DNA of 24,000 bases, from the NCBI RefSeq assembly GCF_900142105.1, contig NZ_FQZS01000007.1, forward strand, positions 68,248 through 92,247. Direction: 5' to 3'. The notes below the pieces were generated by a model, which saw nothing but the letters and a program-made list of their open reading frames with translations, did not search any database and was not told where the DNA came from. A program made the position numbers and the translations under genes. This stretch comes from Lutispora thermophila DSM 19022. Lineage in GTDB: Bacteria; Bacillota; Clostridia; Lutisporales; Lutisporaceae. Shown piece by piece: positions 6,938 through 17,468 of this stretch. Every line of letters starts with the position of its first letter. The first letter of the stretch is position 1.

Positions 6938-7528
6938 CTATTTATTAGTTGTGCAACAACCTCCACTTCTAAAATTCTTCACCTTTCCAATAATTATCAA
7001 AATACTTAATGCAAGTATCGATACAGATATGCAAAACGAAACCCAGCTCACTCTCAGCCCCATGGCCAGTAGCATAGCACATAATTCTACTGCAAGAATT
7101 TTTCTTGCTCGCTTTTTATATACTTCCTCTTCCATTTTATCCAAGGGCTTGTTGGCATCCTCCACAGGAGCAAGGGCATAGATGATTATTGCTGCAATCA
7201 TTGCTATACATACAATATTAAACCTTGTACAAGGAATAAGTTTTATTGCCAAAAGCACTGACATAGTTAATAATATGGAAAAAAAGTAACATTTTGATTG
7301 TGTCCTTGCATGATAACCTCCTGCAAATGACCTCAACGGAATGTATGCAATCATAAACAGAAGGCTTTGCCAAACCATATTGAACAAAAGGCCTATTGCT
7401 ATTGTTGTAAGGATATTCACAATTATTAATAATCCCTGTTTTAAACCATACTCATATAAGTCTCTGTCTTCAACTTTTATGGCTCCATTGGCAATGAGCC
7501 CATCCGCAATTTTATTAATCAAGTCCAT
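6938..7528 (-). CDS. agrB: AgrB-family accessory gene regulator protein B (AgrD-processing membrane peptidase)
   Basis: 196 aa, polytopic. The stretch IAYIPLRSFAGGYHARTQSKCYFFS carries the catalytic His and Cys of AgrB. Its ATG lies 6 nt after the agrD stop. Confidence 0.88.
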   Translation of the reverse strand: MDLINKIADGLIANGAIKVEDRDLYEYGLKQGLLIIVNILTTIAIGLLFNMVWQSLLFMIAYIPLRSFAGGYHARTQSKCYFFSILLTMSVLLAIKLIPCTRFNIVCIAMIAAIIIYALAPVEDANKPLDKMEEEVYKKRARKILAVELCAMLLAMGLRVSWVSFCISVSILALSILIIIGKVKNFRSGGCCTTNK

Positions 7529-7533
7529 ATCAA

Positions 7534-7677
7534 TCAGAATTTGCGCAAATTCTCTGCACCTTTAGGCAGTTTTGGTTGGTGAATTAAGCATATACATGTT
7601 GTATTTACGTTCATTGTTGTTATAAACAAGGCAAAACTGGCAATCAAACTACTCAACTTTATTAAAGCTTTTTTCAT
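7534..7677 (-). CDS. agrD: AgrD-like autoinducing-peptide precursor (47 aa, absent from the ORF track)
   Basis: Hand translation gives MKKALIKLSSLIASFALFITTMNVNTTCICLIHQPKLPKGAENLRKF*. GGGAGG sits 8 nt upstream of the ATG. It has an amphipathic N-terminus, a Cys-containing pentapeptide, then an HQPKxPK tail like clostridial AgrD (C. perfringens ...CLWFT-HQPEEPK..., from memory). Confidence 0.85.
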   Translation of the reverse strand: MKKALIKLSSLIASFALFITTMNVNTTCICLIHQPKLPKGAENLRKF

Positions 7678-7748
7678 TACCATTACCTCCCATAAATCTT
7701 TTCATTTAGTTTTATATTACATCAAAGATATCATTTAAGCGATTAGAT

Positions 7749-7792: not shown

Positions 7793-8296
7793 TTAAAAAG
7801 TATTAGCAAATCTTTGATTCTTGGGAAGAAGTTCATTAGCTAATTGTACTGCCTCATTCCAATCTTTAGATGGCGCAGAAATCATCCATCCATCAGCAGA
7901 ACTAAAACTATATACACCTGATTCATTGGGCTCAAATATTTTAATCATAATCTTTTCTAACTTATCTCCAAAATAAGCATGCAGAACTGTATCGCTATTC
8001 TTTAAGCCTGCCATTCTATCTTTATTTATTATCAATGTCATTTTAGTAAAGTCAAATCGTTGGTCTTCTACATCAATAGTGCCTTCAAATGCAATTCCCC
8101 CGTCTTTTGATGGCCTATATGTTCCATTAATTGATATGGTAATGGGTACCACATCTTCCCTATTTACCATCCTGAACTTAAGTCCGTATAAAGTAGTGTT
8201 TATTGATTTGGGAGACATATAATAATAATTACATGCAACATATATTAACAATATAATTACTATCAAAATACTGATTGACTTATCTGTAATTTCCAT
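7793..8296 (-). CDS. hypothetical N-terminally membrane-anchored or secreted protein
   Basis: 167 aa. GGGAGGAG RBS 10 nt upstream. One N-terminal hydrophobic helix (SISILIVIILLIYVA) followed by a soluble domain. No recognisable family. Confidence 0.7.
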   Translation of the reverse strand: MEITDKSISILIVIILLIYVACNYYYMSPKSINTTLYGLKFRMVNREDVVPITISINGTYRPSKDGGIAFEGTIDVEDQRFDFTKMTLIINKDRMAGLKNSDTVLHAYFGDKLEKIMIKIFEPNESGVYSFSSADGWMISAPSKDWNEAVQLANELLPKNQRFANTF

Positions 8297-8877: not shown

Positions 8878-8943
8878 TTGAATTGATTAGCAGAAATGTC
8901 TTGTAAAATGAAAATTTCCGGTACCTGTTTGGTGAAGGGAGCT

Positions 8944-9027
8944 TTATTTGGCATATTGCTTAAAAAGCTTCTCATCATCAGATTTCAGTATCACAAAATT
9001 TTTCTCTTGAAGCTCCTCTGCTGTTTT
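8944..9027 (-). pseudogene. internally deleted relic of the ankyrin-repeat gene
   Basis: Translates KTAEELQEKNFVILKSDDEK|LFKQYAK*. This matches residues KTTDGLQEENSVILKSDDEK and the last residues IFKQYAK of the intact 153-aa gene, without the ankyrin repeats. A degenerate copy of that gene's terminator and spacer follows (8893-8945). Confidence 0.75.
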
Positions 9028-9073
9028 TTAAAAGGCAACTTTGTCACAAATTCTTCCGCAAACAAAATTTGCA

Positions 9074-9328
9074 TCACATCAGTCGTTCCTCTGGATCACG
9101 AAATGCATCACAAATTTTATCGCATATTCCATCACATATTCCATCACATACTGAAGCAACACAATCACATATCTTATCGCATACTATACCATCACATATT
9201 ACGACTTCACCGGGATCTGGAATACCGGCAACGATAAAGCTGAATTCAAGTCTGTTTTCCATCTCAGTAATGCTCAAATTTTCAACGGAATTCAAATTAA
9301 TTGAATTCAATATACCTTTGTTATCCAT
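9074..9328 (-). CDS. RiPP precursor paralog A3 (Cys-Asp tetrad-repeat peptide), probably frameshifted at its 3' end
   Basis: 84 aa. Same AAGGAGGTGAAATT RBS as A1. The leader differs from A1 at 3 of the first 38 residues. The core has 8 Cys in [I/V]CDx units. The ending RDPEERLM* is unrelated, while the adjacent frame (9028-9078) encodes CDANFVCGRICDKVAF*, homologous to the A2 tail. Confidence 0.8.
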   Translation of the reverse strand: MDNKGILNSINLNSVENLSITEMENRLEFSFIVAGIPDPGEVVICDGIVCDKICDCVASVCDGICDGICDKICDAFRDPEERLM

Positions 9329-9421
9329 AATTTCACCTCCTTTATTTTAATCTGATGCTTAATGTTTGGATTAATTGCTAATTTTATCTTACAATAAAAA
9401 AAGTCCCTAATGGGTTAATAT

Positions 9422-9525: not shown

Positions 9526-9987
9526 TTATTTGGCATATTGCTTAAAAATCTTCTTCAGGTAGGTGTTATCTCCTTCCATTACAAGATCATACACTGACTT
9601 TCCACTGGATGTTATAACATAAGGATCTGCTCCGGCTTCCAGCAATATTTTAGCCATATCGCAATTTCCCATTACCAGCACCATCTCAATAGGATATTGC
9701 CCTTCTGAATCCTGACTGTTTATATCAACTGTTCCACTGGCTAATATCCTCTTAACTAATGCAATGTTGTTCTCCAATACTGCCTGTGTTAACATATCAA
9801 TCGTAAATTCCATATTACTAACCCTTTTCTCATCATCAGATTTAAGAATCACAGAATTCTCTTCCTGAAGCCCGTCTGTTGTCTTTGAATCAGCAGATAA
9901 AACGATGTTGTTGAAGTTCAGTAACATGATCACTGACACAAATACTGCTGCTAAAACCATTGTTGCTCTCGAACCTTTATTTAGCAT
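9526..9987 (-). CDS. signal-anchored or secreted ankyrin-repeat protein
   Basis: 153 aa. N-terminal hydrophobic segment ATMVLAAVFVSVIMLL. Ankyrin-like repeats: NIALVKRILASGTVDINSQDSEGQYPIEMVLVMGNCDMAKILLEAGADP. Confidence 0.8.
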   Translation of the reverse strand: MLNKGSRATMVLAAVFVSVIMLLNFNNIVLSADSKTTDGLQEENSVILKSDDEKRVSNMEFTIDMLTQAVLENNIALVKRILASGTVDINSQDSEGQYPIEMVLVMGNCDMAKILLEAGADPYVITSSGKSVYDLVMEGDNTYLKKIFKQYAK

Positions 9988-10036: not shown

Positions 10037-11167
10037 CTATTGAGCACAATTATCAACCTCTTTTTTTCTTATAAAGCGATTATAGAACTCTAAAAACCTA
10101 TTTGTGATAGCTCTAAAAAGAATTATTACTAAATACATATAAAATAAATTCATTAAAAGTCTCACATTAAGTTTAATATTACTGAAATCCCTAAAGTATG
10201 ACACTATGAATTTTACAATCAAAGCACCTTTTTTAATTAAAATTATTGTGAATAAAAAATATAAGAAGTAGTAAATGTTGTTTGCAACTTTACCTATTTT
10301 ATTATTCTCATAATACTGCAAAACATCTCTGAAAAACCAATATCCATCTGTTCTCATGAAAGGATGAAAATTAAAATAAAAAGTATAAAAAAGCATATTT
10401 ATACATATTAGAAAAATGCTGTATTTAGTTACTATATATAAAATAATTAATAAAACCATATATATGCCTTGCGCAAACAATCCTGCAATATTAACCAAAA
10501 TTCTTTGTTTCAAATCAAGTTCATCTATCCCTGATACATTCGTAAACATAACTGGATATATCAAATATACGGAAAAACTGATAGGTCTTAATCCTATGCC
10601 GCAGTAGCTGCACATGTATGAATGTCCAAGTTCATGAAACATGATGCCAATTATAATAATCAATAATAAAGCAAAGAAATCTGATATGTAAAAATTATCT
10701 TCTTTTTGATAGGCTGAAAAAAAACTATTAAAAGGCAATCCTAAAACAGCCACCAGCAGAACAGAGATAGACACAAGTTTAAGCATGGTATTTTCCCTTA
10801 AATTATATAAAAAGCTGTGACCAAAAAGCTTTTCTTGAATACTGCTTGAAAGCACCTGAATTTGAGGATTAAATATTTTGCGTATTATATGCTTAAATTT
10901 TTTATTGAAACTTTCATACTGTCTTTCCTTTAACACTCCAAGATCAATCAATTTGTCAAATATAACCTGACTGTTTTCTATATTTAAAGATGTTAAATGC
11001 CTTAAATACTCTTCTTTATCACCTTTTTCAGGCAGAACGGATATGAGATAAGCCACTTCTTTACTTACCTTATAGCAAGATGTCTTGTTGATTATTAAAT
11101 TCCCATTTTTATAATCCGGCATATATTCATTTTTAAATACATTAACATATTCTGAGCCAGCTCTCAT
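10037..11167 (-). CDS. membrane-embedded zinc metalloprotease, M50/site-2-protease-like (YydH-like), with a cytosolic N-terminal domain
   Basis: 376 aa. HELGH at codons 178-182 (10622-10636) lies in a TM segment. NFHPFMRTDG matches the S2P signature NxxPxxxxDG. Multiple TM helices. The first ~90 aa resemble a PqqD-like winged-helix domain (VSKEVAYLISVL...VIFDKLIDLGVLKE). Confidence 0.75.
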   Translation of the reverse strand: MRAGSEYVNVFKNEYMPDYKNGNLIINKTSCYKVSKEVAYLISVLPEKGDKEEYLRHLTSLNIENSQVIFDKLIDLGVLKERQYESFNKKFKHIIRKIFNPQIQVLSSSIQEKLFGHSFLYNLRENTMLKLVSISVLLVAVLGLPFNSFFSAYQKEDNFYISDFFALLLIIIIGIMFHELGHSYMCSYCGIGLRPISFSVYLIYPVMFTNVSGIDELDLKQRILVNIAGLFAQGIYMVLLIILYIVTKYSIFLICINMLFYTFYFNFHPFMRTDGYWFFRDVLQYYENNKIGKVANNIYYFLYFLFTIILIKKGALIVKFIVSYFRDFSNIKLNVRLLMNLFYMYLVIILFRAITNRFLEFYNRFIRKKEVDNCAQ

Positions 11168-11194: not shown

Positions 11195-12613
11195 TTACAG
11201 ATGAGGAAATAGGAAATTTAAACTATCTATGCGATCATCCTGTTCTCGCTCAGTATATATATATTTGATGGCTTCATAAATTTCATCTTTCCTTGTGCTG
11301 CAATATGGGTTATATATACTTCCATTGTTTTCTCTAGCCTGAACGCCGCATTCTCCGGCACAAAGCAGTGAGATGGAACATTCCAAACACTTATCAAGAT
11401 TAAGCAGATTTCTGTTTAGGTAATCTTCTCTCAATGAGTTAAAATAAACCTCTCCATTTTTCAGGTATCCTATTTTATAATCATCCCTGCCTGCTTCCTC
11501 ATAGCAGCCGTATATGTCTCCATATGGGTCAATGAGAAAGTTATTGGGTATATTTTGCATGCAAAATCTTGTTTTTCTGAATGGTATGCCCCTTTGAATT
11601 TTCATAAGATATGCCAATCCCTCTGCTTTTCTTCTTATGGGATGTCTGATTTTGCTTTTTATATTGATTGATTCTATTGTTGCAGCGGCTTCCATATGTC
11701 CTACAAAAGAACTGTCATCTGTTTGCTTGAAGTGATTGTGCAAAGGATGCAGATAAATATATGCGTATGGATGATTTAAAATTTCTTCCTTTTCAAGAAA
11801 ATCGTACAAGAATGCCAGTTTTTCCAAAGAATTGGCATCAATATTTATTCTTATATTCAACTTTACTTTCCTATCCAGCATTAAATGGATATTCCTTACT
11901 ATTGTATCAAATGTTGGCTTTCCAGGCTCTGAAACTCTACTTGTATCGTGATCTTCTTGGTTGCCGTCTATTGATACTTGTATGAAGTTTATTTGGCCCG
12001 GCAGAGGACCAACCAAATCCAGGTAATGTTCCAATTGAGTACAATTGGATATGGCACCTACATTGATTGAATATTTATTGGAATACTCCAATACCCTTTC
12101 TACCACATCCCTATTCCTTTTTAAAAAAGGTTCTCCTCCATATAAGGTAATGTCCAGGTCTTCTCTTGAAACATCTCTATATAACTTTTCAAAATATATG
12201 CCAAACAATTGATCCACAAATTCTTTCGTCATAACCTTATTTTCTTTTTTTCCTCTAATTGGCTTCTGATAACAGTAATAGCAATTTAGATTACATGCAT
12301 ATGATAGTAGCAACATCAAGTTGCACTCTGAAAAATCATTTTTTAAATTAAACTCATCTATTTTCTTAACAAACTTAACAAACTCTTTCTTTTCTTCTTC
12401 AGGAGTAAGATTTGTTACATGCCCTCTTCTTTGCAGGAATTCAATTTCCACATCGGCAATATCCTGGGAAGATACCACTTTATCCTTATTGCTTAGAAGT
12501 TGGCCCATCTCTTTAGAAACCTCATCTATACATCCATTGAATCCATTAAATAACAGATATGTGTCTTTAAGAGGTATTATATTTAGATATTTGCTAACAT
12601 AATAGTTTTTCAT
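11195..12613 (-). CDS. radical SAM/SPASM-domain peptide maturase
   Basis: 472 aa. CNLNCYYC (CxxxCxxC) at 12272-12295. GGEPF SAM motif. C-terminal auxiliary-cluster cysteines include the CX2CX5CX3C motif CLECSISLLCAGEC and GDIYGC. A ~100-aa N-terminal extension precedes the rSAM core. Strong RBS GAGGAAGGAG. The start lies 20 nt inside the upstream gene. Confidence 0.9.
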   Translation of the reverse strand: MKNYYVSKYLNIIPLKDTYLLFNGFNGCIDEVSKEMGQLLSNKDKVVSSQDIADVEIEFLQRRGHVTNLTPEEEKKEFVKFVKKIDEFNLKNDFSECNLMLLLSYACNLNCYYCYQKPIRGKKENKVMTKEFVDQLFGIYFEKLYRDVSREDLDITLYGGEPFLKRNRDVVERVLEYSNKYSINVGAISNCTQLEHYLDLVGPLPGQINFIQVSIDGNQEDHDTSRVSEPGKPTFDTIVRNIHLMLDRKVKLNIRINIDANSLEKLAFLYDFLEKEEILNHPYAYIYLHPLHNHFKQTDDSSFVGHMEAAATIESINIKSKIRHPIRRKAEGLAYLMKIQRGIPFRKTRFCMQNIPNNFLIDPYGDIYGCYEEAGRDDYKIGYLKNGEVYFNSLREDYLNRNLLNLDKCLECSISLLCAGECGVQARENNGSIYNPYCSTRKDEIYEAIKYIYTEREQDDRIDSLNFLFPHL

Positions 12614-14444
12614 AATAAACTCCTTCCTCTATGAACCTTTTTGTATCCAATGCAGATAAAAAATATCCATAACGGGACACATTGCTTCCGTTAGCATAAA
12701 ATGGATGAGGCACATCATTTTTTATGAAATATTCATGAATATTGCCTTTATGAATCTTATAAAAGTTGCCTTTATAAAAATCGGAGAACCATTTTTCCAA
12801 CTGCGGCTTTTGTTCTAAAAATCTTTCATATACTTCATTTGAAAAGCCCAAGCTTTGTCTGATATCTATGTCAAATTTCTTGGCAGACAGATAAACTGCA
12901 AGCCCTTCATCATAATACTTTATTAACTCATGTGGCATATTCATGCTACGCCATATGCCAGCAGTCATGAAATGTGTTAGCTCATGGGTGATGAGTCTTA
13001 ATATATCTTGCTCATCAATCCTGTCATCAGAGAGCATTATAACACGGTTTGGGTTAAAGCAATTGCATGCATTGAAATTACCTAATAATATGCGCACTAT
13101 CTCAATGTTATCAATATCTTTAAGAAAAACATCTTTGTTAATACCGAACAAAGTTTCAATTTCACCGGATAAATATTCACGGATATCTATTATATCTTTT
13201 TTTTCTATTGGGGTTATTTTTTTACTTGACAAAAATTCTTTATATCTGTAATATGAGTTACTATCCAGATTAGGCATGTCCAAGCTGTAAGTTGAAAATA
13301 TTTTTCTCAACTCTGGAAGGCCTCGGGTTAAATAATCAACATAATTATCGCAGCTTAAAATGATGTTCCTTATATGATCTGAGTGATTTGTGATATTAAT
13401 ATCAGGTTCCTTAATGGATGTTTTTATATTTGCAGATATGGGCTCATTTGTTATTTCACTTTCAATTTTAAAAGCAATAGTTTTTATAAATTCAGTATAT
13501 TCTTTCAAAAGTGATAAATCAATTTCCTCCGCTCCAAATTTACTAAAAGGAATGCCATTGTGAAAATGATTAATCTTAATAAACAGGCTTATGCTTGGTC
13601 TGTTTTCTTTTACCAGAGTTACACCTTCGCATACTCCAAAGGGAATTTCCGCTTTATACTTTTCATCTAACTGATGCATAACTCCTTCAGGGATAAACTT
13701 ATCCAGCTCTACACCATTTTGTTTTGTGCGTATACCGAAGCCATTATTGCTGTTTATCGATGAGTCTATGGCATCCATAGATATAAAATATAGATCCCTA
13801 TCATAAATTATGTTTAAAAACTCATACAATCCTGAATGACTTACCTCTTCATTAAGCGTCAAAAGTCCGTAATACTTATCAGCATAGTTTTCATATTTCA
13901 TCAGATATATGATAAGAGCAGCATTCAATATATTATCTAAGTTCCAATTTGTCAAAGTATCATTTTTTAATACAGGAGACCCATCATAATGGATGACAAG
14001 TTCACCTGAATCATAAGTTTTTATCAAATCATTATGAGCTTTAAAAAACAATGTGACGCCATCCATGCCACTTCTATGACAATGCTCTACCTCAAGTTGA
14101 TCTATACTTTCATACATTCCCGGCAAAAACACTCCAAAATTTCTGCCCACTAAATATTTTGAAGTTCTATGTCCGTACAATTTTGAGTACATATATTCCT
14201 CATCTTGACTATAGTAAAGCCTTCCTCCAGGATGATCGAGATGAGCCTGAAAGCATATCCTATTATTTTTTATTTTTTCTTGGGAATCCTCTCCTAAAAA
14301 AATATTACCGTTCCTTGTAATAAAAAAAGGTATGTTTCCTAATATAGAAGCTAAAATAGCTTTCGTCGTTTCATTCCATTTATGAAAGGGAACAATATGC
14401 AATCTGGACAGTTCTTTAACAATTTTATGATATTCTTGTATCAT
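12594..14444 (-). CDS. two-domain putative leader peptidase: N-terminal co-catalytic (M42/M20-like) aminopeptidase fold plus C-terminal HExxH zincin domain
   Basis: 616 aa. Ordered motifs AHLDHPG (H68/D70), NLDN (D170), NEEVSH (E199/E200), SMDAID and INHFH mirror the M42 metal ligands. HELTH at codons 487-491 (12972-12986) is followed by YDEGLAVY. Overlaps the rSAM gene, implying translational coupling. Confidence 0.6.
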   Translation of the reverse strand: MIQEYHKIVKELSRLHIVPFHKWNETTKAILASILGNIPFFITRNGNIFLGEDSQEKIKNNRICFQAHLDHPGGRLYYSQDEEYMYSKLYGHRTSKYLVGRNFGVFLPGMYESIDQLEVEHCHRSGMDGVTLFFKAHNDLIKTYDSGELVIHYDGSPVLKNDTLTNWNLDNILNAALIIYLMKYENYADKYYGLLTLNEEVSHSGLYEFLNIIYDRDLYFISMDAIDSSINSNNGFGIRTKQNGVELDKFIPEGVMHQLDEKYKAEIPFGVCEGVTLVKENRPSISLFIKINHFHNGIPFSKFGAEEIDLSLLKEYTEFIKTIAFKIESEITNEPISANIKTSIKEPDINITNHSDHIRNIILSCDNYVDYLTRGLPELRKIFSTYSLDMPNLDSNSYYRYKEFLSSKKITPIEKKDIIDIREYLSGEIETLFGINKDVFLKDIDNIEIVRILLGNFNACNCFNPNRVIMLSDDRIDEQDILRLITHELTHFMTAGIWRSMNMPHELIKYYDEGLAVYLSAKKFDIDIRQSLGFSNEVYERFLEQKPQLEKWFSDFYKGNFYKIHKGNIHEYFIKNDVPHPFYANGSNVSRYGYFLSALDTKRFIEEGVYYEKLLC

Positions 14445-14494
14445 AACATTTATCCTTTCTTTCGCTTTAATATCATGTTATTTCCATCATCAGT

Positions 14495-14803
14495 CTACCA
14501 GATGACCTTGTCACAGAATCTTCCGCAAACGAAATTTACATCGCATGGATATATTGTGTCACAAAAAACATCACAAACTTTATCACATATCTTGTCACAG
14601 ATATCCCCACAAATCTTATCGCATACTTTATCACAAATAGGACTGCAAATTACATCACATACACCGGTTGTACACTCAGGGCGGATTATATCTAAAATTG
14701 ATATGTCCATAATCGAATAGACAATTCTTTCTTCAGATTTTTCCAATATTAGATTGTCTTCATTGAACAGGTTAATAGTTCTAATAATATTATTCATAAA
14801 CAT
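14495..14803 (-). CDS. RiPP precursor A2 (13-Cys Cys-Asp tetrad-repeat peptide)
   Basis: 102 aa as tracked. The likely true start is the third codon (ATG at 14797), 7 nt after GGGGG. Cys-free leader ...IRTINLFNEDNLILEKSEERIVYS.... Core CTTGVCDVICSPICDKVCDKICGDICDKICDKVCDVFCDTIYPCDVNFVCGRFCDKVIW. Confidence 0.85.
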   Translation of the reverse strand: MFMNNIIRTINLFNEDNLILEKSEERIVYSIMDISILDIIRPECTTGVCDVICSPICDKVCDKICGDICDKICDKVCDVFCDTIYPCDVNFVCGRFCDKVIW

Positions 14804-14920: not shown

Positions 14921-14954
14921 TATGTAACCTTAATTATTTTGCAAAATCAAATTG

Positions 14955-15188
14955 CTACCAAATTGCATCGCATATTTGTCCACATATTTGATCACATATT
15001 GCATCACATACTGCGGAGATGCAGTCACATATCTTATCACATACAATAGCATCACATATTCTACCATCATAATAATCCGGAACACCAGCAAAGATAAAGC
15101 TGAATTCAAGTCTGTTCTCCATTTCAGTAATACTTAAATTCTCAACTGAATTTAGGTTAATTGAGTTCAATATGCCTTTGTTTTCCAT
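14955..15188 (-). CDS. RiPP precursor A1 (8-Cys Cys-Asp tetrad-repeat peptide)
   Basis: 77 aa. RBS AAGGAGGTGAAATT. Leader MENKGILNSINLNSVENLSITEMENRLEFSFIFAGVPD. Core GRICDAIVCDKICDCISAVCDAICDQICGQICDAIW. Confidence 0.88.
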   Translation of the reverse strand: MENKGILNSINLNSVENLSITEMENRLEFSFIFAGVPDYYDGRICDAIVCDKICDCISAVCDAICDQICGQICDAIW

Positions 15189-15375: not shown

Positions 15376-16671
15376 CTAAAAACTATGACAAAAATTATAT
15401 AAAAGAACATCTGCATAAAACATAGAGTCTGTATGTTGTATGGTTATCGCTCCATTATATTTGCCAATGGCCTTTTTTACACTCTTTAAACCAAATCCAT
15501 GATTTTCTTTATCTCTATGAGTCGTCTTAAGATCGCTGTTTTCATAGACAAGATTTCCGTCAAAGGGATTTGAGATGCTAATATAAAGAACATTTCTATC
15601 TAGCTTGATAGAAGCTTTAATGGTTTTATCCCTTTCCAATTTTGATACCGCCTCTATAGCATTATCAAACAAATTGCCAAGAATTATGCTCAAATCAAAA
15701 GGCTGGATATCTAATTTCTCAGGCATGTTCAATTCCAAATCCACTTCTATGCCAAGCTTTTTTGCCTCATTTATCTTATAATTCAATATACTATCTACCG
15801 GCATATTGCCGGATTTGATATGATTGTTTGATTCTCCGATTAAATCAAAAATTCTATGTAAATATTCCAAAGCACCTTTATTGTCGTTTTTTTCTATTAG
15901 GACCTGTAAAACTGAGATATGATTTTTTATATCATGTCTGAGAATCTTTATATTCTCATTAGATTGATTAATAATGTCAAGTTGTTTTATATAAGCATTA
16001 TTCTGCTGGTGCAGCAATTCTTTTTCTATTTTTTCGTTATAAGATCTTATCAAAGCATCATATAAATAAAATACAAAAACATTAATAATGAATAATATTG
16101 ATATACTTATCAAAATAAAATACAATTTGTATTGAGCTTCTATAGTTATCAAAATAAAGGTGGAAAAGAGAGTTCCTACAGGTATTAAAATTATTGCAAT
16201 CCAATGCATAGGAGAAATGTTTATATCATTTTTTATCATTTTGAAATTTGATAAAGCAAGCATGATCATATATGAAATTATCTTTGTACTAATTAGTGCA
16301 GCTATTAATTCTACATTGGCATCATCGCTTAATTGATTTAAGTTCATAGATTTTAACCCATACACTGTTAAAGCTTCAACAGACAGCAATATTGCATATA
16401 TGTAAATCGTTGCAATAAGTCTTGACTTCAATGAAGCTGGATAATTAAACGTTAGCAAGAAAAATAGAATAAGATTTGAAATTAAATTAACACCTGGATT
16501 GTTAAACATAATGTAAATAATAGCTATAGATAGATAATAAAGTATATAAGATATGAATTCAAAATTTTTGCTGACTGCATCATTTTCAAAGAAAAAAGTC
16601 ATAAATTTGAAAATTATATAAGTACCAAAGATATTTGACAGAAGATAAATAATATCGTAATTATCAAGCAT
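15376..16671 (-). CDS. AgrC-like (HPK10-type) membrane sensor histidine kinase
   Basis: 431 aa. About 6 N-terminal TM helices. H-box LRHDIKNHISVL, N-box LGNLFDNAIEA, G-box HGFGLKSV. Its start overlaps the response-regulator stop by 8 nt. Confidence 0.88.
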   Translation of the reverse strand: MLDNYDIIYLLSNIFGTYIIFKFMTFFFENDAVSKNFEFISYILYYLSIAIIYIMFNNPGVNLISNLILFFLLTFNYPASLKSRLIATIYIYAILLSVEALTVYGLKSMNLNQLSDDANVELIAALISTKIISYMIMLALSNFKMIKNDINISPMHWIAIILIPVGTLFSTFILITIEAQYKLYFILISISILFIINVFVFYLYDALIRSYNEKIEKELLHQQNNAYIKQLDIINQSNENIKILRHDIKNHISVLQVLIEKNDNKGALEYLHRIFDLIGESNNHIKSGNMPVDSILNYKINEAKKLGIEVDLELNMPEKLDIQPFDLSIILGNLFDNAIEAVSKLERDKTIKASIKLDRNVLYISISNPFDGNLVYENSDLKTTHRDKENHGFGLKSVKKAIGKYNGAITIQHTDSMFYADVLLYNFCHSF

Positions 16672-17395
16672 TGTTATTAACCTCTTTCTGTCTCATCTGC
16701 AAAAGCTTGTCTCTCACAGCCTTTCTGTTATGTTGGCTAATGGGCAGTATCACATTATTGGATATCCTAACTTTATCATATTGCACTTCAACTATGTGAT
16801 CATAATTTACCAGATATGATTTATGAATGGATATGAAAGGCGCTCCTCTAATCTGCCTTTGTATTATTGACAATTTGGAATAATATTCCTCTATGGTATC
16901 TTTCATAATAATGCGGATTTTTTTACCCATACTTTCAAAATATAAAATATTATTTATCGGTATTCTATAAAAACAATGACCCTTTTGATATTCAAAAATA
17001 ATGCCATTATTACGTAAAAGTCTTAAGGCTGTCATAAATACTTTCTGGATTTTCTCATATGTAAGAGGTTTTATTAGGAAATTGAGAGGCCTTATATCGA
17101 AAAGTTCCATGGCATAGCTGTCTTTTCCTGACACATAAACTATATGGGTGATATCATTAGCTATTACTTCTCTTATGAGTTTACCAATTCTTATTCCATT
17201 CATGGTCTTTAGGTCAATATCTAAAAATATTACATCATAATACACTCCTTCATGTAATGACTGGCATAATTTTTCTCCAGAATAGAATGTCTCTACAGAT
17301 ATTTCCTCGCAAAAGGTCTGTCCTATTTCCAATAATACATTTTCCATGTAGGCACATATAGCTTTCTCATCATCACATATAGCTACATTAATCAT
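16664..17395 (-). CDS. LytTR-family response regulator (AgrA-like)
   Basis: Start trimmed to the ATG at 17395 (AAGGAGGTG RBS), giving MINVAICDDEK.... REC domain with DVIFLDIDL. C-terminal LytTR domain ILYFES...ISIHKSYLVNYDHI. Confidence 0.9.
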   Translation of the reverse strand: MINVAICDDEKAICAYMENVLLEIGQTFCEEISVETFYSGEKLCQSLHEGVYYDVIFLDIDLKTMNGIRIGKLIREVIANDITHIVYVSGKDSYAMELFDIRPLNFLIKPLTYEKIQKVFMTALRLLRNNGIIFEYQKGHCFYRIPINNILYFESMGKKIRIIMKDTIEEYYSKLSIIQRQIRGAPFISIHKSYLVNYDHIVEVQYDKVRISNNVILPISQHNRKAVRDKLLQMRQKEVNNNA

Positions 17396-17468
17396 ATAGG
17401 ACACCTCCTTTAAAAGGATATTATAGAAAACTAAACCTTTATTTAACATATTTTATTTAATTTGTATA

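Follow-up and report, generated by a model that had tools for sequence, protein, structure and literature searches.

The window analyzed here is a stretch of 24,000 nucleotides (nt) from Lutispora thermophila DSM 19022 (assembly GCF_900142105.1, contig NZ_FQZS01000007.1, positions 68,248 to 92,247 of the forward strand), and the gene under study lies at 12594..14444 on its minus strand. The gene encodes 616 amino acids (aa) plus a stop codon. In its product, an M42-like aminopeptidase domain is joined to a gluzincin-like domain, and its 3′ end overlaps the gene of a radical S-adenosylmethionine (rSAM)/SPASM peptide maturase. Taken together, the evidence somewhat favors the view that the fusion is a cytoplasmic endo-plus-exo leader-processing peptidase, coupled to this maturase in the biosynthesis of a peptide that is made by the ribosome and modified after translation (RiPP). 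An AGGA-type ribosome-binding site was found 5′ of the open reading frame (ORF). Neither a signal peptide nor a transmembrane segment was found in the 616-aa protein, and it was read as cytoplasmic for this reason.

A first-pass annotation of the same DNA, made from the letters alone, had proposed that two peptidases are fused in this protein. All the motifs that it listed were found in place, namely AHLDHPG (residues 67-73), NLDN (168-171), NEEVSH (198-203), SMDAID (222-227), INHFH (291-295), HELTH (487-491), and YDEGLAVY (511-518). The proposed architecture was also upheld: the N-terminal half was assigned to M42 with a full set of ligands, and the C-terminal part was gluzincin-like with HExxH and a downstream Glu. 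A peptidase fold was obtained for both halves, and the putative ligands were kept among the homologs.

Two peptidase-like domains and their conservation

The Pfam and NCBIfam scans of the target alone were empty, and homolog sets were therefore needed for domain assignment. No meaningful NCBIfam match was obtained even at E ≤ 10 for either half of the target or for three full-length relatives. A word-indexed search of 5.8 billion proteins returned eight clusters related to the target, one of which was annotated as "cellulase M and related protein". This name is a historical mis-annotation of M42 aminopeptidases (PMC3511314), and the cellulase identity was rejected on that ground. Furthermore, 78 proteins were obtained when 1.84 billion representatives were searched exhaustively with a profile. 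About 25 of them were full-length, with both domains and 610-660 aa, and some consisted of the C-domain alone (about 300 aa). At the weak end of these matches stood ordinary proteins with 320-380 aa, and all five that were checked were members of Pfam M42. The fusion is a rare family. Relatives were present in 6 of 185,579 species genomes, those of a Clostridiaceae metagenome-assembled genome (MAG), a Clostridium sp. MAG, Dethiothermospora halolimnae SD1, two Vecturithrix, and a Deltaproteobacteria MAG, and eight further loci came from a metagenome collection. The identified hosts were anaerobe-type lineages, and the samples were from fermentation, anaerobic reactors, and groundwater.

The M42 (TET-type) aminopeptidase domain was assigned to residues 1-330 (13455..14444, minus strand), including a PDZ-like beta insertion between H68 and D170. 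When the N-domain of the family was compared by hhalign with an alignment of the weak-end profile matches, five members of which were confirmed as Pfam M42, a probability of 100% and an E-value of 6e-44 were obtained. The M42 model PF05343 was matched at E ≤ 1 by 25 of 27 relatives (best 7e-12), with the window protein itself unmatched. In a profile search of the PDB sequences, the M42 enzymes TmPep1050 and YsdC were matched marginally (E 0.02). The structural comparison agreed with the earlier assignment of this half. The AlphaFold2 model of the full fusion had a predicted local distance difference test score (pLDDT) of 82, and its top 50 Foldseek matches in the PDB were all M42/TET aminopeptidases (E 3e-12 to 2e-9). 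Among them were 2wyr, 4p6y, and 1y0r, with PhTET1 and TmPep1050 both at E 3e-12, as well as entries titled as the mutants H60A and D62A. The target-normalized template modeling (TM) scores were 0.59-0.68, with 345-385 aligned columns per complete M42 chain (305-360 residues), and the alignments spanned the PDZ-like insertion of these chains. In the model, a beta-rich insertion occupies residues 73-166, which gives a catalytic alpha/beta domain with a PDZ-like insert.

The canonical M42 order of residues is present, with H68, D170, E200, D/E224, and H295 as ligands and E199 as the general base. H68 is a predicted metal ligand and D70 a predicted second-shell Asp (H68-L-D70 in AHLDHPG, 14235..14243, minus strand); in the alignment to 4p6y, they correspond to H60 and D62 of TmPep1050. 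The predicted bridging ligand D170 (WNLD, 13935..13937, minus strand) aligns with D168. The predicted general base E199 and metal ligand E200 (13845..13850, minus strand) align with E197 and E198, in the QEEVG motif of M42. The remaining predicted metal ligands are D224 (13773..13775, minus strand), which is Asp or Glu in the family, and H295 (xHNG, 13560..13562, minus strand). By sequence and model, residues 1-330 are thus best described as an M42-family (clan MH) co-catalytic aminopeptidase domain that is complete although divergent.

A low-confidence interdomain linker (residues 331-345; 13410..13454, minus strand; pLDDT below 50 at 334-344) leads to the gluzincin-like domain of residues 346-616 (12597..13409, minus strand). 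An AlphaFold2 model of residues 345-616, built from a 23-sequence alignment, had a pLDDT of 93.9 and a predicted TM score (pTM) of 0.90. Its layout is typical of zincins: it begins with a helical N-subdomain and a three-stranded sheet, continues with a long helix that holds HExxH and a second one that holds the Glu, and closes with a helical subdomain at the C-terminus. The two motif helices follow one another directly (H134-156 and H161-179, as numbered within the C-domain). The predicted zinc-binding and catalytic motif is H487-E488-L-T-H491 (12972..12986, minus strand), and E513 (EGLA; 12906..12908, minus strand), 21 residues past H491, is the predicted third zinc ligand. The stand-alone homologs of the C-domain also retain HExxH and the Glu.

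When the members of the C-domain set were scanned one by one against Pfam, DUF2268 was weakly matched by 12 of 23 (best 3e-5) and DUF5700 by 3 of 23 (1.4e-5), while others pointed to M1, M48, and SprT-like families. When PDB sequences were searched with a C-domain profile, only spurious matches came up. The Foldseek list consisted mostly of zincins, with M61, the ChlB HExxH domain, BlaR1, aminopeptidase N, and SPRTN, and further weak matches to anthrax LF, EryP, AsaP1, ACE2, and Ste24. All of these matches were at E ≥ 0.05. We read the C-terminal part as a gluzincin-type domain, probably nearest to DUF2268 and DUF5700, without a close characterized relative. In addition, a nearly invariant NFNA(C/S)N beta-strand (residues 456-460; 13065..13079, minus strand) was observed about 30 residues before HExxH. 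We infer that it occupies the position of the substrate-anchoring GxMEN of M1 enzymes. The strand is without the Glu of GxMEN, which by analogy hints at endo- rather than exopeptidase binding.

Conservation was studied on an alignment of 27 full-length homologs with 17-81% identity to the target and a mean column identity of 35%. Only 26 of the 616 columns were invariant, and H68, D70, D170, E199, E200, H295, H487, E488, H491, and E513 were all among them; D224 was Asp or Glu throughout. Hence 10 of the 11 predicted functional positions fell in invariant columns (hypergeometric P about 3e-14). D227, H293, and D512 varied among the homologs and, for this reason, were not taken as ligands. A bare HExxH arose in 5.6% of shuffles of the target protein, and HExxH-x15-30-EG in 0.3%. 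The match of motifs and ligands exceeds chance. Every ligand was invariant down to 17% identity, which implies selection for catalysis, and both putative active sites are under purifying selection in the clade of the target.

Coupling to the maturase and the precursor peptides

The rSAM/SPASM maturase gene (11195..12613, minus strand) starts within the target gene. The 20-nt overlap noted in the first-pass annotation is real, and the Shine-Dalgarno sequence of the maturase gene, GGAAGGAG, sits within the 3′ end of the target ORF. The maturase scored below every curated cutoff, with 126 bits against 600 for CefB and 113 against 340 for PapB (NF047865). An orthologous rSAM gene (36-85% identity) was immediately adjacent to the fusion gene in all of the flanked loci (L001-L013 and L016-L020). 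Where it lay downstream, the two genes overlapped by about 17-32 nt; where it lay upstream, they shared 4 nt or were separated by a few nt. The coupling is thus tight and usually translational. Both gene orders occurred, and at least three phyla were represented, with hosts that include Clostridia, Candidatus Vecturithrix, and a Deltaproteobacteria MAG. The reading that a housekeeping M42 peptidase lies there by chance was rejected, as the rSAM gene was adjacent in every flanked locus. The probable dedication of the fusion to an rSAM/SPASM RiPP pathway, which the first-pass annotation had also suggested, is supported by this context.

Three precursor genes were recognized in the window, all on the minus strand. 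Precursor A1 (14955..15188) has 77 aa, in which a conserved leader is followed by a core of C-D-x-I repeats with IW at its end. Precursor A2 (14495..14803) is 100-102 aa long and its core contains 13 Cys, and A3 (9074..9328), with 84 aa, is a paralog of A1. Homologous precursors were found near most loci, with the common leader I-I/L-x-S-I/V-N-L/F ... E-L-E/D-x-R-L/I and the core pattern [C-D/E-x-I/V]n, often with IW at the end. The IW dipeptide directly follows the last C-D-x unit in many cores (the window, L004, L005, L006, and L016), whereas the core of A3 ends in the 8-residue tail RDPEERLM. The plus-strand ORFs at 8896..9237, 9069..9350, 14382..14720, and 14952..15137, with SHILSH/ITY-type repeats, were rejected as genes because they arise when the DNA of the C-D-x-I repeats is read antisense or out of frame. 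The same artefact occurs in a Vecturithrix record as a gene call of 56 aa (L001, 9602..9772); the real precursor there has 97 aa (L001, 9463..9756).

The pair of fusion and rSAM genes was also observed in the cultured Dethiothermospora halolimnae SD1 (L007; L002, 8001..11235), where it lies between ligA and gatCAB. No recognizable precursor, protease, or transporter was found within 8 kb of this pair, so either the genes of its precursors must lie elsewhere or the pair is an orphan.

Proposed role of the fusion and competing explanations

Other rSAM/SPASM pathways have dedicated metallopeptidases, such as PqqF with PqqE and MftE with MftC, and the leaders of class III lanthipeptides are processed by the bifunctional endo/aminopeptidase M1 enzymes AplP and EryP. 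In the proposed leader-processing role, the maturase would cross-link Cys to Asp/Glu in the core, as PapB does (PMC9413430). The zincin domain would then remove the leader by an endoproteolytic cut. The M42 domain may trim the new N-terminus, halting at the first macrocycle, and/or degrade the freed leader of about 35-45 aa.

Several observations weigh against this role. The whole target protein gave no match in Pfam (E ≤ 1) or NCBIfam (E ≤ 0.01). Foldseek of the C-domain against the PDB gave no match at E ≤ 0.001, the best being at E 0.05, and the relative orientation of the two domains was uncertain in the full model (pTM 0.58). Moreover, other proteases are encoded in many of the clusters and could remove the leader, which weakens the case for cutting by the fusion. 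In the window, an M50-like, daptide-protease-like HExxH intramembrane metalloprotease is encoded at 10037..11167 (minus strand), with a score of 62.6 bits against the daptide-type protease model, whose cutoff is 300. M50-like proteases were present in L004, L005, L006, L011, and L012 as well. The Vecturithrix locus L001 contains an S41 peptidase and a C39-ABC exporter, with a GG motif in the precursor, and L010 has an ORF that reads as S41-like. A further point is a sister clade (P0014, P0020, P0021, P0034, and P0035; 479-577 aa) that aligns over both domains and has lost the ligands of both metal sites but kept the rSAM coupling.

In the N-site of this clade, HLDHPG is changed to x-L-x-x-G-G-G and WNLD to WNLS, the EE pair is lost, and H295 is replaced by F, A, or G; in the C-site, HExxH is changed to G/A-E-x-x-Y/S. 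Two of its members could be placed on contigs (L011, 5508..7163; L012, 2931..4658), and both overlap the orthologous rSAM gene by about 23 nt. YcaO proteins are encoded in their clusters along with a second rSAM and an M50-like protein whose HELGH motif is intact, and the precursor leaders are clearly homologous to those of the window (MKKRNYIIESVNFISEEDLLVQELDKRLSF against MENKGILNSINLNSVENLSITEMENRLEF). The cores in these two clusters differ from those of the window and end in GLRG or GVRG. Because the dead clade is still coupled to the rSAM and to the leader family, the coupling outlives catalysis, and physical binding to the precursor or the rSAM is probably a property of the family as well. 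Binding or scaffolding, and not catalysis, may even be its conserved core role. This arrangement suggests that in the dead clade binding alone remains and the M50-like protease cuts.

These findings lead to the first rival explanation, possible but rather doubtful, in which the fusion is mainly a scaffold or a binding partner of the leader and/or the rSAM. The peptidase chemistry would then be secondary or vestigial, and the M50-like protease or others would cut. The degenerate clade, with its overlapped rSAM genes, homologous leaders, and intact M50-like protein, is in agreement with such a role, and the gene overlap would fit co-translation and the formation of a stoichiometric complex. However, the ligands of both sites are invariant in the clade of the window, even at its lowest identity. 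The rSAM itself, as read from its sequence, is extended at the N-terminus by about 100 aa, and such an extension acts as the RiPP recognition element (RRE) in SPASM maturases. In addition, three minimal clusters (L016, L018, and L019) consist within their flanks of precursors, rSAM, and fusion only, so that the fusion is their sole candidate protease; no other obvious protease or transporter was seen among the large ORFs of these flanks, which were read by eye and not by a family scan.

A speculative reading, which we consider unlikely, would make the fusion one half of an obligate maturase-peptidase machine. The peptidase-derived folds would grip the leader and pass the precursor between the rSAM and the two proteolytic sites, and cross-linking would gate the endo-cut and the exo-trim. 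The dead clade of the YcaO/rSAM clusters would then be a pseudo-peptidase that only grips. If true, the fusion would belong to a hitherto unrecognized type of protein that recognizes or partners RiPP precursors and has no relation to the PqqD-like RRE.

It is improbable that the fusion is instead a clean-up or immunity peptidase, degrading released leaders, un- or mis-modified precursors, or re-entering product. The M42 TET enzymes are indeed general oligopeptide-degrading aminopeptidases (PMC3511314, PMC8993905), and the specific cut could be made by other proteases in several clusters. However, the strict coupling to the rSAM, even where no other protease was seen, fits a biosynthetic step better, and immunity genes are seldom translationally coupled to a maturase.

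Very improbable is an assignment of the C-terminal HExxH domain as an alpha-ketoglutarate (aKG)/Fe(II) oxygenase that hydroxylates core Asp/Glu, like ChlB-H, BpmH, PflC, and PosC. HExxH proteins of RiPP clusters have repeatedly proved to be aKG-dependent beta-hydroxylases, including those of Asp (PMC12636437), the cores here are Asp-rich, and the HExxH domain of ChlB (8s5f) was the second-best Foldseek match of the C-domain (E 0.09). Nevertheless, 8s5f superposed poorly (TM 0.27, root-mean-square deviation 13 Å), and no match to IPR026337/TIGR04267 was found for the whole protein at E ≤ 0.01 or for the halves and three relatives at E ≤ 10. The invariant Glu of EGLA, 21 residues on, is the signature of gluzincins, and the likenesses in Pfam are to protease families. 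Moreover, O2-dependent chemistry seems unlikely in anaerobe-type hosts.

The suggestion of the first-pass annotation that the fusion is the uncharacterized partner in the curated rSAM system for CXXX-repeat peptides (TIGR04115 with its associated families) is scarcely credible: the precursors do have Cys at every fourth residue and TIGR04115 is among the weak rSAM matches, but the rSAM reached only 49.2 bits against its cutoff of 350, with the CefB, geopeptide, TIGR04463, and PapB models scoring higher, and the fusion and its relatives matched no NCBIfam model.

Other genes of the cluster and comparison with known systems

Downstream of the M50-like gene, an ankyrin-repeat protein is encoded (9526..9987, minus strand), with a hydrophobic N-terminus that is possibly a signal or an anchor. 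It is 76% identical to its counterpart in the closest related cluster (L005) and is unusual for a bacterial RiPP cluster. A split agr-type quorum-sensing set flanks the RiPP cluster on both sides. On one side, an AgrD-like ORF of 49 aa (7534..7683, minus strand), containing TTCICLIHQPKLPKGAE, lies just upstream of AgrB (6938..7528, minus strand); on the far side are a GHKL histidine kinase and a LytTR response regulator (15376..16671 and 16664..17449, minus strand). Between agrBD and A3, an ORF of 167 aa (7793..8296, minus strand) has an N-terminal hydrophobic segment and no Pfam match.

The N-domain was compared with the known M42/TET enzymes (PhTET1-3, TmPep1050, YsdC, CelM, and SpPepA). The whole-chain fold, including the PDZ-like insertion, is the same, and the order and spacing of the ligands are alike (H68, D170, E199-E200, D224, and H295 against H60, D168, E197-E198, and H307 of TmPep1050). 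However, the known enzymes are stand-alone housekeeping dodecamers of 330-370 aa, whereas the domain here is fused and linked to a RiPP operon. The motif is H(M/I)DE(I/V)G in those enzymes and HLDHPG in the fusion, and the window protein is too divergent for the Pfam model. For the C-domain, the gluzincins of clan MA (DUF2268, DUF5700, M61, and M1) likewise have an HExxH helix, with the zinc Glu on the next helix 21 residues on. The EGLA of the fusion compares with the NEGFA of M1, and a beta-sheet precedes the motif in both, but M1 enzymes have GxMEN where the fusion has the NFNA(C/S)N strand.

Among RiPP systems, the PapA/PapB pair of freyrasin and the ranthipeptides are comparable in their maturase. 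That of the window is likewise an rSAM with SPASM architecture, and the PapB, CefB, and geopeptide models are related to it. PapB cross-links Cys with Asp/Glu (PMC9413430, PMC10739248), and a core composition of Cys with Asp/Glu is common to both; the likeness to the PapB family is confined to this composition and the SPASM architecture. The register of the repeat differs, being C-x3-D there and C-D-x-x-C here. Two papers on PapA/PapB (PMC9413430, PMC10739248) showed no sign of an M42-zincin partner, although such a partner was not looked for specifically. The aKG HExxH hydroxylases (ChlB-H, BpmH, PflC/PosC; IPR026337) also adjoin or are fused with rSAM RiPP maturases, and they act on leader-containing peptides (PMC12636437). 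They differ from the fusion in that no sequence similarity exists between them, the fusion has the gluzincin Glu, and its hosts are apparently anaerobes. The daptide-type M50-like protease is a membrane protein distinct from the target, and is the other candidate leader protease in the cluster.

The presence of a dedicated two-domain candidate may be of practical interest. To our knowledge, most radical-SAM RiPPs, such as ranthipeptides, sactipeptides, and their relatives, have no known leader-removing enzyme, which blocks production of the mature compounds. The fusion family is a concrete candidate for this missing step, as a compact device with two putative active sites that could both cut and trim. 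It also marks a distinct cross-phylum RiPP class with Cys-Asp/Glu tetrad repeats, a common leader, and many cores ending in IW, and is a possible handle for genome mining. The sister clade with dead sites offers a natural experiment that separates binding from catalysis. The M42-plus-gluzincin architecture is covered by no Pfam or NCBIfam model, and neither this fusion or cluster type nor any M42 peptidase linked to RiPP biosynthesis was found in the searchable literature, with subscription journals outside its coverage; the exclusive rSAM coupling, the precursor class, and the pseudo-peptidase offshoot are likewise absent from these sources. Both peptidase clans, and dedicated RiPP peptidases as a concept, are already known, and no new principle is involved. 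Compared with AplP and EryP, in which both activities reside in one M1 active site, the fusion would carry its putative activities in two domains of different clans.

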